A stretch of 64,000 nucleotides of DNA from Dictyostelium discoideum (GCA_000004695.1 CM000154.2:2560001-2624000), one strand, 5' to 3'. Positions 40,672 to 50,883 are shown, counted from the first letter of the stretch. The notes: generated from the sequence alone by a model not told the origin. Numbers and translations: made by a program.

Positions 40672-44589
<3,918 letters not shown>

Positions 44590-44714
44590 ATAAATTTTTC
44601 TACAATATATCTAGTTATCTAGTTATACCAAAATAAATCCAAAAAAAAGTGTGTCACATGGTTTCCATTTTTTATTTTTTTTTATTTTTTTTTTATTTTT
44701 TTTTTATTTTTTTT

Positions 44715-46297
44715 TTAAATTAATAATCTTTTATCAATTTTATCTTTAAATGAATTATAAATTGTTGGATTAATTAAAGATAAAATTTTATCTTTAATTC
44801 TTTGTAATTCTTCAGGTGATGAAATTTTTGAATTTTTTAATTGTTTGAAATATTCATAATAGTTTCTATCAGATAAAGGGTAAAAATCAATTGGTTCGCC
44901 ATTAATCAATGGTAAAGATTTAATACTACGTTCAGAGATTTCAACGATTTGTTGTAGTTCTTCATTATCAGATGCATCACAATTAAATACTGATTGAATA
45001 TGTTTGGGTACACCTTTTTGAAGAATATTTGAAAGTTGTTCAGAGGAGAACATCTTTTTAAATTCAACCGATTGTTGTCTAAAATCGATCATTTTTCTTA
45101 AATGTTTAATCTTATTAAATGTACGTTCATCTTGATTATCTGGTGAATCTATATCCATTACTTTACCAAGTTTATCTTCAAGTTGATCGAATTATCAGGA
45201 AGTGACTTTTCTTTAACTGACATATCTTTAATTTCAACAGTTCTTGAATGTGAATATTTTGAACAAACTAAACCAATACCAGTATCTAATGGATTTGTTA
45301 AACTTGGTTCATGATATACTATTGAGTCATTTAGTAATGGTTCTTTACATTTTTCACAAAGATAACCAGATAGGTTACTTTGAAATTCACAAAGTGGACA
45401 TTGACAAAAGAAATAGTAACCATCCAATAATTCTCGTCTACGATTTTTTAAAGGGTATTCATTTGCCAAATATCCAAGAGATAGTTCATCACCTTTTTTA
45501 ACATTTGAGGACGTTGAAAATAGTAACATACCTTGATCATCCAATGACCATGTCGTATTTGGCATACAAGAATGATTGAAATAACCAGTTGGACAAACAC
45601 CTCTACCAATCTCTTTACTTGTAGCATAGGAAAATTGATGAGCATTTGTCAAAACTGAGGAAAAGCATTCCAATATTTCATGGATTGTAATAGTGTTTTT
45701 TAAGTATCCAACACCACGTACTGATGATATTAAACTACTTATTGAAGTTACACCACGTTTAAATTTTGTCATATGTTCTTTATCAACTTTATCCAATGTA
45801 CTCGTTAAACCCATGAAATCCTGATAATCATCAACTATATTATCTTTCAATTGACTGCTTTCCACAATAAACAGTTGGGTTACTTGGAGTTTGCATTCCT
45901 TGTTTACCATTTGCGATGTTTGCAATGATTCTTAACAATAACCTCATATCACGTGTATCTGAACCTAAATGAAAAGTACTTAAAATTTTATAAAAACCAC
46001 AAACCTCTTTATGATAATCTGAAATGGTTCCACAGCACTTTCATTTATCGATCTACATGATTTACAAACTGAATAAAGCTTACAATTTTTACAAAGACAT
46101 TCTTTACTATCAGATTTCGGAATTCTCTGTAAACAGAAACCACAATACTTTTCAGTTGCCAATTTATCAGAATCTTCAATTGATGAAGCGAATGGCGCAC
46201 ATCTAAATACAGTACTACCCTTTGGCAAATCAGTATTGGCTTGCACAGTTCTTCCTTTATTTGGAAATTGTTGAAATTGTTTCTCATCCTTTTTCAT
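44715..46297 (-). pseudogene. SET + MYND zinc-finger (SMYD-like) methyltransferase gene with at least two reading-frame disruptions (possible pseudogene, or homopolymer sequencing errors)
   Basis: Three consecutive ORFs in different frames. 45980-46297 holds the MYND Cys cluster (CGFCLQRIPKSDSKECLCKNCKLYSVCKSC). 45158-45925 holds the SET core (GRGVCPTGYFNHSCMPNTTWSLDDQGMLLF..GDELSLGYL) and post-SET (CQCPLCEF). 44715-45158 is the C-terminal region. Junctions at ~45930-45980 and ~45160-45200 have no room for introns. Confidence 0.5.
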
Positions 46298-46560
46298 TTT
46301 AGCATTAAATTGTTCCTCCTCTTCTTGAGTTTTCTTTATCTTTTCTCTATTTTCTCTTTATCTTGTTGATACTCTTTTTTATAATTTTCATTACTTTCAA
46401 TTGAAATCGCTTCCTCAATTGATTTTAAAGCATCATCTAATAGACATAAATCTCTTTTACCACGGGAATGTCTAAAATAAATCTTTGAAATTATTTTTAT
46501 AATTTCCTCTCTTATCAATTGAAATACCTTTTTCACTATTTTCAGCAAAAACAGATTGTT

Positions 46561-46685
46561 ATTTTATTTCTATTTTCATTTCTATTTCTATTTTTTTTAT
46601 TTTTTTATTATTTTTTTTACAATATGATTAATAACGAATACAATGAAAAAAAGGAAAACCTTTTTTGGATGGTATTTCAATAACT
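46561..46685 (+). repeat. duplicated fragment of the promoter and first ~25 codons of gene B (cf. 40621-40740)
   Basis: ..ttttacaatATGATTAATAACGAATACAATGAAAAAAAGGAAAACCTTTTTTGGATGGTATTTCA is ~90% identical to the gene-B start, then breaks off. Confidence 0.7.
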
Positions 46686-47070
46686 CCTTCACCTGTAAAA
46701 CTCCATCTTTACCAGGTACTGTTGTATAAATTACCCCATCAGGAGAACATCCAATTCTTTTGTCACCTGGCAATGGAAAGATACCTTTTTCGATAATTGA
46801 AGTCTCCAACTCATTAAAATAAAATTCTCTTGCTATTGGTTCTTGGCTTTTACCATGTTCCATTGCCTTTTTACAGTAGTCACTAAAGAATGGTGTTTTC
46901 TTTTTAGCCAATATTAATTTTAAATCATGTTGTGAAGTGTATGGATCAATTCCAATGGCAGCAGCTAATCTACTTCCAGTTAAAGAATACTTCTCTCTTG
47001 CTTTTTCCCATTTTTTAGTTCCTTGTACCAAATCTTCATCGATACATCGGTTTTGTATGGAGTTGTATTT
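46686..47070 (-). pseudogene. YqaJ-like (lambda-exonuclease-type) recombination nuclease domain fragment; lacks a start, C-terminal part replaced by the gene-B fragment
   Basis: ..KKWEKAREKYSLTGSRLAAAIGIDPYTSQHDLKLILAKKKTPFFSDYCKKAMEHGKSQEPIAREFYF...IGCSPDGVIY...GVLQVKE resembles the YqaJ domain (..TGSDIAAILGLSPYKTPYELWLEKTG..). Confidence 0.45.
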
Positions 47071-47541
47071 TTACAAACTGCTAATGATTTGAAAATCATA
47101 AACAATCAAACCTATTCAAATTGTCTAACGTTTTACTATCAAATGATTTCGAATATTAATTTCGAAAATGCTGAAGTAACCATATTAAAAGTCATACCAC
47201 CCAAAGATAGGTGTATGGAACAAATTAACCAAAGAGGTAGAACCTTTGAAGTCGGTAGTTTATCTATAGACTATGTTTCCAAATTAACCGATAAAATTCG
47301 ATCTCATTGTGTTAGCCAAGTTTTATCAAGACTTGAAAAACCAATAAAATGCTGTATCGATAGAGAATACAAAAGCAATGATGACCTGTTCAATGACATT
47401 TTCTTTAATGAAAATCCAAACTCAATTCCCACACCATCAAATACTCCAACTCAATCTCTTCAAAGTTCACACTCAAATCTTAGTTTTTATTACCCATCGA
47501 ATCAAGAGCAATATTTTAATATTCAAGATTATTTGAATTAA
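47023..47541 (+). pseudogene. deoxynucleoside kinase (dCK/dGK family) C-terminal fragment; no N-terminal P-loop part present
   Basis: ..NAEVTILKVIPPKDRCMEQINQRGRTFEVGSLSIDYVSKLTDKIRSH matches the dNK motif ..IYLxxxPExCxxRIxxRGRxEExxIPLEYLExLHxxHE; the frame opens right after a stop, with no ATG. Confidence 0.45.
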
Positions 47542-47638
47542 TAAAACTAAATTCTAAATAATACTATAAAAAAAAAAATAAAAAAAAAAATAAAAAAATA
47601 AAAATATATTTAAATTAAATAAAAAAAAGAAAAAAAAA

Positions 47639-47824
47639 ATGTCTACATTTGCCGATCTTCGTTCTGTTTCAGGTGCCTTACTAGGTGGTATGGGTAGTAT
47701 TGGTGTTGCCGCTCTTGGTGCTTACTTTATTTATACAAGTGAAATTGGAAGCGTTGATTTCTATATGGGTGTTGGTTTTGCTGCCTTTGGTTGTCTCTTG
47801 GTTTCGGATCATTATTCAAAATAA
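47639..47824 (+). CDS. small hydrophobic protein (61 aa, two predicted TM segments)
   Basis: MSTFADLRSVSGALLGGMGSIGVAALGAYFIYTSEIGSVDFYMGVGFAAFGCLLVSDHYSK; codon usage typical of expressed Dictyostelium genes (ggt, gct, gtt). Confidence 0.45.
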   Translation: MSTFADLRSVSGALLGGMGSIGVAALGAYFIYTSEIGSVDFYMGVGFAAFGCLLVSDHYSK

Positions 47825-47949
47825 AAATGATTAAAGAAAAGAAAAAAAAAGAAAATAAAAATTAAGATAACTAGATTTCAATTATTTTAATTATTATTTA
47901 TTAATATTATTTATTTTATTTAAAATAAAAACAAAAATAGTTGATGGTT

Positions 47950-48345
47950 TTATTTGTTTTTTTCTTCATTTTCTTTTGGCACATCACATAATCTAACAAC
48001 TTTTCCATCTATATACTGAAGATTTGTTAATAATTCGGTTCTTTCTTTAAAACGATTTTTTTTAATAAAATTGGTATATTCGTAGAGGCTCAAACCCTTC
48101 ACTCCATGACCAAATACCATTTTACAATCTTCAAAGTAACCTCTTGAGAATTTATAATGATTATAAAGGATAATGTCAATTATTTTTACCATTTTTACTT
48201 TACAGTCAGTTGTACATACACAAGGTTCAAACTCGGGGAATTCATCTGGATCTGTTAATAGCCACATGTATTTACTCTTATTTTCCTCAGCTTCTTCAAT
48301 GGATAAATTTGAATGTGGGCACTTATTAGTAGCTCTTTCTTCCAT
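47950..48345 (-). CDS. hypothetical Cys-containing protein (131 aa)
   Basis: MEERATNKCPHSNLSIEEAEENKSKYMWLLTDPDEFPEFEPCVCTTDCKVK...; coding-like composition. Confidence 0.45.
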   Translation of the reverse strand: MEERATNKCPHSNLSIEEAEENKSKYMWLLTDPDEFPEFEPCVCTTDCKVKMVKIIDIILYNHYKFSRGYFEDCKMVFGHGVKGLSLYEYTNFIKKNRFKERTELLTNLQYIDGKVVRLCDVPKENEEKNK

Positions 48346-48539
48346 TATTTAAGTTGTAATTATAAATATATATGTTTGTGTGATAATTTTTTTATTTTTA
48401 ATGTTAGTAAAAAATGTTTAAAAAAAATTAAATTATTATTTTTAAAAAAAAAAAAAAATAGAAAAAACACCGTGGGTGTGGTGTTTTTTTTTTTTGGAAA
48501 ATAAAAATAGAAACACCCAGGAAGCAGTTTTTTTTTTTT

Positions 48540-48757
48540 TTGCCATCACTTATTTTTTTGAGTTCTTGTGCAGTTGCAAAGGTTCTAATTGGCTCTTGTT
48601 TTTCTCTAAGTCTTTGCAATCGTCTTCTTTCACTTTCTTCTTGCATCAACCTTCTTCTTTCTTCTTGTTCAGCCATTCTTTGTTGTGCTTTTTTAATTTT
48701 AATTAATTTGACCGTTTCAGGATCTGCTTCAATTTCTTTTTTTTGACGGGCACCCAT
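48540..48757 (-). CDS. small charged coiled-coil protein (C-terminal boundary uncertain)
   Basis: MGARQKKEIEADPETVKLIKIKKAQQRMAEQEERRRLMQEESERRRLQRLREKQEPIRTFATAQELKKISDGKKKK then runs into a poly-A/T tract. Confidence 0.4.
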
Positions 48758-49389
48758 CGTTTTTTTTTAAAAATAAACCTAATGATTTATACATGTTTAT
48801 ATTTAATAATTGAGAATTTTTTATTTTAAGACAATGGTTTTGAATTCTTTTTTAAAAAAATCATTATAAATTTTCTTTGATTCATTACATTTTTGTTTCT
48901 ATCAAATGATCACTTTCTAATGATTTTATATTAATAGTCATTAGAAAGTCCATTAGCTACTTAGGAATTCTATAGAAAATCGTTGAAAATTTTAGTTTTG
49001 TTTTCTTTATAATGGTTATCTTCTAAAGATTTTTAAATAGAAAATCTATGGATAATAATAGTTTCTAATTAGAAATCTTTAAACAATCATTGGAAATCGT
49101 TGAATTTTTCTTTGGCTTATTTAATAGTTTTCTATCTAATGATCACATCCATACCGTTATCTATTGAAAACTATTCCAACAAAAAATCTAATGGCCTTCA
49201 ATAAAGTAATATTAAATTATAAAAAAATAAAAAGAAAAGAAAAAAACAATCCAAACCAATAGATGGGTTTCATTGAAAGAATATTTTAAAAAAGATTAAA
49301 GTTTTTATTTTAAAGAATTTTTGTATTGATTTCATAAAGGAAATCATTAAAATGTTTTTTAACAATGGTTTTGAATTAAAAGATAACCT

Positions 49390-50760
49390 TTAATATTTCT
49401 TCACCCAAGTTTCTTCAGCTCCATCTTTAATGAGTTCATATCCCTCCTCTGCAGTGATTCTAATTCCATCACCTACTTCACGTGCAGTATTGGCGATACC
49501 ATCACCTACATCATGTGCAGTATTGGCGATATCATCACCAATCTCATTGACACCTTCTCTCCATGCTTGATAACCTTGTTGAGCATAATTACGAGCACCG
49601 TTGCCAGCTTTTTGTACACCATTTCTCATGGAATTGTAACCTTCATTAGCATAATTACGTGCACCATTACCAGCTTTTTGTGCACCATTTCTCATGGAAT
49701 TGTAACCTTGATTAGCATAACGAGTAGCTCTGCTACGTATAGAGTTACCAACACCATTAGCAGTACGAGAAATAGAACCACCAGCTCTGGAAGCAACTCC
49801 TGCGGCACCACCCTCAGCACCGGCTGCTGCACCAGCTGCTGCTGCACCGGCGCCAGCAACAATAGCACCCCTGCAATACCAACATCTATAGCAATTAATT
49901 GATCATCCGAAACCTGAAAGTTTGAATGTGGATTTTGATTCTGATTTTGATTTTGATTTTGATTTTGATTTTGATTTGAATTCTTATTTCTTGATGCGAA
50001 AGCATTTGATATTCTTAGGTAGTAGCCTTGCGAATGAAAAGTATAATCCTCTTCAGTTCTATTACAGAAATCACTGCCTTCTATGGCCACTTCACCAGTT
50101 CTGAATGGTATACCCTCTGGAAATATTTGAGATTGATCAGCTTTTAAAGATGATTCGACGAAATGTTTGGTATGTTGATTAGTTTGACCATCCCATACAA
50201 AACCTGGCTCTTTTTCAATATTAAAAGATGGAGCATTGATATCCATATTATAAAAAGATGCAAGGATATCTATCCCATCCCAAACCATTTTCATCAGGGT
50301 AAGCAGTATCAAATTCTGGTTCAAAACCAAGATTGTCCCATGAGTTGAATTGAGTTTTGAATTGGTGGAGTAGAGCTTGTTCAACAGGTGTTACTTGGTT
50401 ACTGGTTCCTTTATCATTCAATCCGGGGAAACGCATATAGCACACAATGAAATCACGTTCAACATGGTTACGTCTACTGTGATCAGCAATTCTGTCCCGA
50501 ACATCAATAGTGGATCTTCCGATATAATATAGTGGAAGCATGTATTCATTACCGTCGATGATTTCATTGGCAGTCGAGAAAATTGCATAGATACCGGCGT
50601 TATTGCATTCAAGTGGACCATATCCACCGTTTTGGTTAATAACACTATTACATGCCCAAATATTATGAGTAGTGGGGTGCAAATCGCCTGGAGGTGGATA
50701 GAATGAAGCAATTGCTTTTTCATACCCTAAAGAAAATTGGATACTACTACAAAAAACCAT
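49390..50760 (-). pseudogene. GIY-YIG nuclease-like N-terminal domain fused to a Gly/Ala-rich, LEA-like repeat C-terminus; frame broken at ~50290 and at a GGGG run (~49868-49871); GC-rich, atypical codon usage
   Basis: N-terminal: ..NAGIYAIFSTANEIIDGNEYMLPLYYIGRSTIDVRDRIADHSRRNH...VEQALLHQFKTQFN (GIY..YIG..R..H..E..N). C-terminal: GAIVAGAGAAAAGAAAGAEGGAAGVAS...MRNGAQKAGNGARNYANEGYNS / MRNGVQKAGNGARNYAQQGYQA and DIANTAHDVGDG / IANTAREVGDG repeats. Codons CCC, CGG, TCG, GAC, GCC, which are rare in this genome. Confidence 0.5.
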
Positions 50761-50883
50761 TACAAAATAAACAATTAATTTTAGTTTATTGAAATTAAAT
50801 TGTATATAATAATGAAAAAAAAAAATATTAAATAGTAAAAAAAAATATTTGTAATTTAATTATTTGTTTCCAATTCAACTGTC

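Follow-up and report, generated by a model that had tools for sequence, protein, structure and literature searches.

A probable pseudogene of Dictyostelium discoideum and its Dictyostelium relatives with a predicted GIY-YIG nuclease domain

GIY-YIG nucleases serve in DNA repair (UvrC, SLX1) and are also known as homing endonucleases, restriction enzymes, parts of retroelements and bacterial toxins; SLX1/HIGLE and GrxS16 are located in the nucleus or in plastids and have RING/PHD or glutaredoxin partners, and we know of no eukaryotic member which has a signal peptide and a membrane anchor. We report here on a coding-like sequence found on the minus strand, at 50760..49390, of a 64,000-nucleotide stretch of the Dictyostelium discoideum genome (GCA_000004695.1, CM000154.2:2560001-2624000; this whole stretch is called the window), which displays a GIY..YIG..R..H..E..N motif set, an Ala/Gly-rich stretch, repeats and two frame breaks. 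It is highly probable that the locus, taken as 50794..49390 (minus strand), is a pseudogene: a recently inactivated, intron-less paralogue of a family which, judged from sequence searches, is restricted to Dictyostelium and previously undescribed. In the literature we found no prior description of a secretory GIY-YIG family from Dictyostelium or from any other eukaryote, including under the D. purpureum accessions.

The domains Tox-URI1 and Tox-URI2 of bacterial polymorphic toxins (Zhang et al. 2012, PMC3482391) are the only well-described exported GIY-YIG domains that we could document. They are C-terminal on RHS/filamentous proteins, are exported by type II, type V or type VI secretion systems and are paired with an immunity gene, and the signature of Tox-URI1 is Y, YxG, R, [RK]xxE, N (PMC3482391). 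The window copy resembles Tox-URI1 in having Y58, Y79-x-G81, R90, E127 and N139, and in that a domain of predicted GIY-YIG fold would be exported; it differs in reading TPVE, so that [RK]xxE is absent. The Dictyostelium domain is moreover N-terminal, behind a eukaryotic signal peptide, unlike the Tox-URI domains, and phmmer detected no homology with them. As for SLX1/HIGLE and the N-terminal domain of plant GrxS16, they lack the signal peptide, the membrane anchor and the repeat tail of the Dictyostelium proteins, and no sequence relationship was detected.

On the minus strand of the window, a first frame starts with the ATG at 50760 and stays open until a stop codon at 50248 (170 amino acids), and this open reading frame (ORF) contains GIY at residues 56-58, YIGRS at 79-83, RIADH at 90-94, VEQALL at 126-131 and NSWDN at 139-143. 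The middle part of the gene is read in a second frame, from about 50270 to 49872, while the first frame is found again from 49869 to the TAA at 49390-49392. The ancestral state was obtained from a DNA alignment of the window copy with three other copies, L001, L002 and L003. The first of these belongs to a different D. discoideum assembly; it shares 84% identity with window positions 49111-50878 and reads MAKLKLIIYFVIVFCSS...WVKKY* (MAKLKL start) in one frame, except for a single GAA-to-TAA stop. This single frame shows what the ancestral state was at each of the window copy's three lesions. The features of the locus are listed here, in window coordinates:

50761..50794, minus strand: remnant of the 5' end of the ORF, still in frame (..NKLKLIVYFV), the ancestral ATG being deleted (DNA alignment with L001 and L002)
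50725..50760, minus strand: first remaining ATG and tail of the former signal peptide (MVFCSSIQFSLG), too short for signal-peptide function (hydropathy)
50596..50724, minus strand: conserved Cys-containing N-terminal preface, K..A.FYPPP..PHP.T...W.C......C (family alignment A1)
50332..50595, minus strand: GIY-YIG-like core with GIY (Y58), YIG (Y79, G81), R90, H94, E127, N139 and the family motif VCYMRFP
50587-50595, minus strand: GIY (translation)
50512-50526, minus strand: YIGRS (translation)
50479-50493, minus strand: RIADH (translation)
50368-50385, minus strand: VEQALL (translation)
50332-50346, minus strand: NSWDN (translation)
50267..50274, minus strand: GATAGATA, a 4-nucleotide tandem duplication, frame +1; ancestral reading GLGWDILASFYNMDIN (DNA alignment)
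49990..50266, minus strand: conserved middle domain, DILASFYNMDIN.P ... F.EGIP(Y/F)..G.V..G.D.C ... S..Y..I; contains 50210-50285
49931..49977, minus strand: (AATCAA)n, that is (NQ)n, linker, whose length differs among copies (Tandem Repeats Finder, DNA alignment)
49798..49898, minus strand: Ala/Gly/Val-rich hydrophobic segment (LIAIDVGIAGGAIVAGAGAAAAG...), a putative transmembrane anchor, broken by a 1-nucleotide deletion (Kyte-Doolittle hydropathy 1.87 over 19 amino acids)
49465..49720, minus strand: C-terminal tail repeats, 22-amino-acid YNSMRNG.QKAGNGARNYA..G x2.3 and 11-amino-acid IANTA.xVGDG x2.2, with amphipathic-helix periodicity (Tandem Repeats Finder)
49390..49392, minus strand: TAA stop of the ancestral ORF (translation)
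48076..49389, no strand assigned: downstream flank duplicated together with the gene, including part of a neighbouring 198-amino-acid gene (blastn against L001, 84-86%, and L006, 77-87%)

The three lesions are of different kinds. At the 5' end, 20 nucleotides are missing (AAACGTAGTTAATGATGGCA, with AAAC microhomology at the flanks) at the junction 50787/50788, and with them the ancestral ATG and the opening codons of the signal peptide have gone; the first surviving ATG retains only MVFCSSIQFSLG of that peptide. The second lesion is GATAGATA at 50267-50274 where the other copies have GATA, which makes a +4 shift inside GLGWD|ILASFYNMDIN: L001 and L003 lack the duplication, L002 has a different indel, and the deposited sequences P0002 and P0009 read WDILAS. 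Third, GGGG stands at 49868-49871 where GGTGG is found elsewhere, a T having been lost inside GIAGGAIVAG. The original prediction, an earlier reading of this region from its sequence, had announced two frame changes, which are there; it had missed the 5' lesion. It had correctly placed a break in the G run, which is the loss of a T from GGTGG and not a miscounted homopolymer, and it had put the other break at about 50290 instead of at the GATA duplication. With the start and the N-terminal part of the signal peptide lost and with two frame-breaking lesions, the window locus cannot make the family protein. When the window copy is compared with L001, the ratio of nonsynonymous to synonymous divergence (dN/dS) is 0.22 and dS is 0.094; this means that purifying selection acted during most of the separate history of the two copies and that the decay is recent. 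The short direct repeat GGGATGGGAT(A), at 50267-50281, is an indel hot spot: the window copy has gained 4 nucleotides there and L002 has independently lost 5.

A public annotation has the locus otherwise. In GCA_054883475.1 a gene of 418 amino acids is annotated at exactly 50760..49390, and it needs 114 nucleotides of introns; the original prediction had likewise offered a 76-nucleotide GT..AG intron as an explanation of the break which it had put at about 50290. A functional gene with two very short introns would thus be annotated at the very coordinates of the window locus, would find some comfort in a dN/dS which indicates constraint, and can in fact be written: when we enumerated the GT-AG pairs, six intron pairs totalling 114 nucleotides gave an open frame of 418 amino acids. 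No protein on record corresponds to any of the six. The 76 nucleotides at 50210-50285 do have GT..AG ends, but these are expected by chance, and the stretch is coding: it encodes DILASFYNMDINAPSFNIEK (SFYNMDIN), a motif whose conservation extends to D. purpureum, its counterparts in L001 and L002 are colinear with it and in frame, and the guanine plus cytosine (GC) content of the stretch, 30%, exceeds the 12-21% of the non-coding DNA on either side. The second candidate intron has a GC content of 61% and would be only 35-56 nucleotides long. At both sites L001 continues in frame and without loss of colinearity, and the product of the two-intron gene would have no signal peptide and would have lost conserved residues. 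We regard this gene as very improbable, and the 418-amino-acid model is an artefact in which false introns bridge frameshifts. Another deposited model, P0008 (475 amino acids, at L009 10001-11465), contains a 37-nucleotide false intron which removes the frameshifted helix of the conserved Arg, and the entries P0001, P0002, P0009, P0025 and P0026, each named "hypothetical protein", are fragments of pseudogenes.

Could the gene be intact and its frame breaks be errors of sequencing or assembly? One lesion is indeed a single-base loss beside a G run (49868-49871), and several relatives from the same new assembly set also have single frameshifts (P0008/L009). However, a 20-nucleotide deletion with microhomology, a 4-nucleotide duplication and the loss of a T are lesions of three kinds, two of which are untypical of long-read errors, and the indel rate is apparently low, since the 769-amino-acid product of the adjacent gene cupC is identical to that of strain AX4 and the window contains open, very AT-rich frames as long as 1305 amino acids. 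We consider that an intact gene is improbable, and we keep to the pseudogene.

The state of the other copies is given next. Of the seven loci examined in the D. discoideum group (five from D. discoideum, two from D. cf. discoideum) each is either a fragment or disabled by lesions. Among them are:

window copy: three lesions
L001: one stop codon
L002: start lost, stops, frameshifts, 3' end truncated
L003: fragment
L006 (the window's genome): a 3' fragment and a divergent member with frameshifts and stops
L009: one frameshift

No paralogue of the gene was found elsewhere within the window. The downstream flank, 47875-49523, is a dispersed repeat which also lies beside the L001 copy (84-86% identity) and at three places in L006 (77-87%); it contains a two-exon gene of 198 amino acids, at 47950-48757 on the minus strand, with a ERRRLMQEESERRRLQR motif. 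The copies have this flank in common, including part of the unrelated 198-amino-acid gene, which indicates that they were spread by segmental duplication and not by any mobility of their own. One could otherwise think of a selfish GIY-YIG element, either a free-standing homing endonuclease or a Penelope-like remnant, whose mobility would account for the multiple decayed copies: these are dispersed and degenerate, and some of them lie near retrotransposon fragments (L002, L006). Yet a signal peptide, conserved cysteines, a hydrophobic anchor and a tail are what one expects of a secretory protein rather than of an endonuclease acting in the nucleus, the domain is not fused to a reverse transcriptase or a DNA-binding module, and the shared flank with its neighbour gene points again to segmental duplication. 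On these grounds the mobile element was rejected, and we give it next to no credence. At L002 10645-11772, the 3' end of the copy is fused in gene models to a Met_synt_B12 (PF02965) match, yielding the chimeric P0025, which suggests a rearrangement breakpoint inside the tail repeats.

We then come to the family to which the pseudogene belongs. An exhaustive phmmer scan of the exact 170-amino-acid ORF against 1.84 billion representative proteins returned 10 relatives, all of them Dictyostelium entries named "hypothetical protein", from D. discoideum, D. cf. discoideum, D. purpureum, D. firmibasis and D. dimigraforme, which we take to be "group 4" dictyostelids. Outside these five species no homologue, bacterial and viral ones included, was found among the 1.84 billion representatives. 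A word-indexed search with the joined protein of 431 amino acids gave no matches, which probably reflects a search swamped by the NQ (Asn-Gln) and poly-Ala words; alignment A1, used as a profile against the word-indexed database, retrieved three close fragments only.

The longer members have a common architecture, established from alignments A1 and A3 and from hydropathy: an N-terminal hydrophobic signal peptide, a preface, the GIY-YIG block, a middle domain, a linker, a hydrophobic segment and a variable tail, predicted to be helical. The preface motif of the family is FYPPP..PHP.TG..W.C, and the core reads GIY...YIG(R/K)S...R, then (I/V)VC.MRFP, then (V/I)E..LL..F...N. It is followed by a middle domain of about 100 amino acids, GL.(F/W)DI(L/M).SFYNMDIN.P ... 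F.EGIPY.GG.V.DG.D.C ... S..Y..I, and by a low-complexity linker made of NQ repeats in the window copy (GATTTT x7.8 according to Tandem Repeats Finder, encoding (NQ)n) and of Thr/Pro-rich repeats in P0004. Each long member then has a single Ala/Gly/Val-rich hydrophobic stretch, with Kyte-Doolittle values of 1.7-2.2 over 19 residues (1.87 in the window copy, against 1.72-2.21 in P0003, P0007 and P0008). At the N-terminus, P0001 and L001 start with MAKLKLIIYFVIVFCSS, and the hydropathy of L001 reaches 1.98 over 19 amino acids, while the window copy has no N-terminal peak.

The core is most probably a divergent GIY-YIG nuclease domain, whose modelled shape is closest to the long-hairpin enzymes R.Eco29kI and T4 endonuclease II (EndoII). 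A template-free AlphaFold2 model of the 170-amino-acid ORF (predicted local distance difference test 69.8, predicted template modelling score 0.70) has the order strand-strand-helix-strand-helix expected for GIY-YIG, with GIY and YIG on the adjacent strands E56-62 and E76-82 and with R90 in helix 87-98. A second model, that of the D. purpureum member P0003, agrees with the first, and its eight best structural matches are all GIY-YIG proteins; the best structural matches are phage and bacterial enzymes, T4 EndoII and R.Eco29kI, and a viral fold library gave weak matches only (best E value 9e-3). The predicted beta-beta-alpha-beta-alpha core is thus like that of R.Eco29kI and T4 EndoII in the GIY-YIG/URI superfamily, as are the GIY and YIG strands, the Arg in the first helix, the His four residues on, and then Glu and Asn. 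The spacings R-x3-H, H-to-E (33) and E-to-N (12) resemble those of UvrC. Across the family the GIY Tyr is kept in 8/9 sequences, the YIG Tyr in 9/10 and the Arg in 8/10, and E127, G81 and N139 are at least 90% conserved. In the models, then, the domain has the GIY-YIG fold and has kept most of the catalytic constellation.

Sequence profiles speak less clearly. The match of the window copy to PF01541 covers only profile positions 2-33 and, at 14.5 bits (E 0.044), lies below the curated cut-off of 22.6 bits; none of the relatives P0003-P0010 matches GIY-YIG in Pfam at E<1. At E<=10, GIY-YIG appears weakly in 4/11 family sequences and MUG113, which we assume to be in the same Pfam clan, in 1/11, so that GIY-YIG is the sole recurrent weak match. 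Searches of the PDB by protein sequence and by family profile gave no meaningful matches. The GIY-to-YIG spacing is 21 residues in the window copy, against about 10 canonically. Hence, of what the original prediction said on this domain, the motif set and the fold stand while the "correct spacing" does not, and the Pfam match that it looked to exists below threshold. The window copy differs from the superfamily in a similarity below every curated threshold, and the Dictyostelium domain in being preceded by a signal peptide and a Cys-rich preface and followed by a novel middle domain, an anchor and a repeat tail. The superfamily being nucleoid or nuclear, the Dictyostelium family differs again in a location which is likely extracytoplasmic.

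The signal peptide, four conserved cysteines, a mucin-like linker and a single hydrophobic segment lead us to infer that the intact members are type-I proteins of the secretory pathway. A cleavable signal peptide would direct them into the endoplasmic reticulum, where they would become type-I membrane proteins. The predicted GIY-YIG domain would then be exposed inside secretory or endo-phagosomal compartments or outside the cell, and the repeat tail is predicted to lie on the cytosolic face of the membrane. Most members have the Tyr/Tyr/Arg/Glu/Asn constellation and would be predicted to cut DNA by the one-metal GIY-YIG mechanism. As a tentative reading, which we hold to be possible and no better than that, the intact relatives (for example XP_003291147 and XP_003284980 of D. 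purpureum, and those of D. firmibasis and D. dimigraforme) could be undescribed, secretory, membrane-anchored GIY-YIG nucleases for DNA outside the cytoplasm, in a rapid birth-and-death family which is being lost in D. discoideum. Their targets would be the DNA of bacteria ingested into phagosomes, or else the proteins would be weapons of conflict or allorecognition.

Several points weigh against the picture of a dead copy in a family of secretory nucleases. The signal-peptide and transmembrane calls are based on hydropathy alone, no sequence-profile match to GIY-YIG reaches a curated threshold, and no more than 5/8 members have the His of the R-x3-H motif. As for the locus itself, the dN/dS value shows past constraint and, taken alone, would also fit a gene which is still functional, and the 1-nucleotide deletion at 49868-49871 may conceivably be an assembly error.

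The original prediction had drawn from base composition and codon usage the conclusion that the gene is foreign. The GC content of the gene is indeed above that of its surroundings (39.5% against 22% in the whole window). This excess, at codon positions 1 and 2, is due to the 22% of codons which are Gly or Ala. At third positions (GC3), the three pieces of the gene have 0.29/0.20/0.19 against 0.06-0.28 in 15 other ORFs of the window, and the synonymous choice matches the reference (0.15 against 0.10 for Gly, 0.16 against 0.14 for Ala). The codon adaptation index, computed against the same 15 ORFs with leave-one-out reference values, is 0.48/0.62/0.58 for the pieces and 0.557 overall, against 0.66±0.11 (range 0.48-0.84), that is to say within about one standard deviation, and the five codons which had been called rare make up 14/442 together. 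Codon usage is therefore at the level of the neighbouring ORFs, and the index on which the foreign origin was to be checked is ordinary.

A gene for a GIY-YIG nuclease recently acquired from a bacterium or a virus could still be argued from the raised GC content, from the phage and bacterial enzymes among the best structural matches, and from the frequency of GIY-YIG domains in phages and giant viruses. The native codon usage is opposed to it, together with the lack of any homologue outside Dictyostelium among the 1.84 billion representatives, for the domain as for the C-terminal tail, the poor best score in the viral fold library, and the occurrence of family members, all of them with a eukaryotic signal peptide, in five species of Dictyostelium. 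The (NQ)n repeats are found in the window copy and in its close paralogues. Native codon usage, a distribution limited to Dictyostelium, a native signal peptide and the NQ tract together rule out a recent transfer in our judgement, and we hold it to be extremely improbable; the domain may have been acquired anciently, by the common ancestor of the five species.

The C-terminal part contains what had been described, namely an Ala/Gly-rich stretch (49798-49869) and then 22- and 11-amino-acid repeats, which Tandem Repeats Finder sees as 66 nucleotides x2.3 at 49571-49720 and 33 nucleotides x2.2 at 49466-49539; the tail of L001 has one 66-nucleotide unit more than that of the window copy. It had also been called LEA-like. 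No LEA family profile matches the tail in Pfam at E<=10 (the best match is ApoO, E 0.09), and a database search with the tail, in which bacterial and viral LEA-like proteins might have appeared, returned two Dictyostelium fragments only, with no homologue outside the Dictyostelium family. The tails of the window copy and of P0003 align weakly (31%, E 3e-6), and that of P0003 is helical in its model, at low confidence. With no LEA profile match and no homologue outside the family, homology with LEA proteins was rejected. What remains is a likeness to the 11-mers of LEA group-3 proteins and apolipoproteins: the periodicity of 11 and 22 residues, with a hydrophobic moment which is maximal at 100 degrees. 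The tail is rich in Gly, Ala, Asn and Arg, whereas those proteins are rich in Lys, Glu, Ala and Thr. "LEA-like" holds only as a physical analogy, that of amphipathic helices built on 11-mers.

Finally we must mention the surroundings of the pseudogene. The window is 100% identical over 46450-59711 to CM142511.1, from the D. discoideum assembly GCA_054883475.1. The pseudogene adjoins cupC (52450-54759, minus strand), which encodes calcium up-regulated protein C, a Ricin-B lectin, and whose product is identical to XP_636312.1 of AX4. In two other D. discoideum assemblies, reached through relatives of cupC (L007, L008), there are 4x tandem cup arrays with different neighbours, no copy of the GIY-YIG family nearby, and nothing like window 44000-52390. 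The multi-exon gene at 44715-47099 (minus strand) is unrelated to the GIY-YIG-like locus; the product of its 5' exon matches PF09588 (YqaJ-like recombinase/exonuclease) in the public annotation, and its downstream ORFs resemble a Cys-rich protein of MYND/SET type. A small gene lies directly upstream of the pseudogene, and its start (50882-51102) is 88% identical to 42242-42462, about 8.5 kb away on the opposite strand.

The locus itself is ordinary and matters little; the family is of more interest than the locus. The false introns laid over frameshifts, in the 418-amino-acid model as in P0008, are a warning for the gene models of Dictyostelium. If the intact members are active, a professional phagocyte would have in them extracytoplasmic nucleases of a new class, and the patchy, decaying distribution of the family would then mark selection of the conflict type or relaxed selection.

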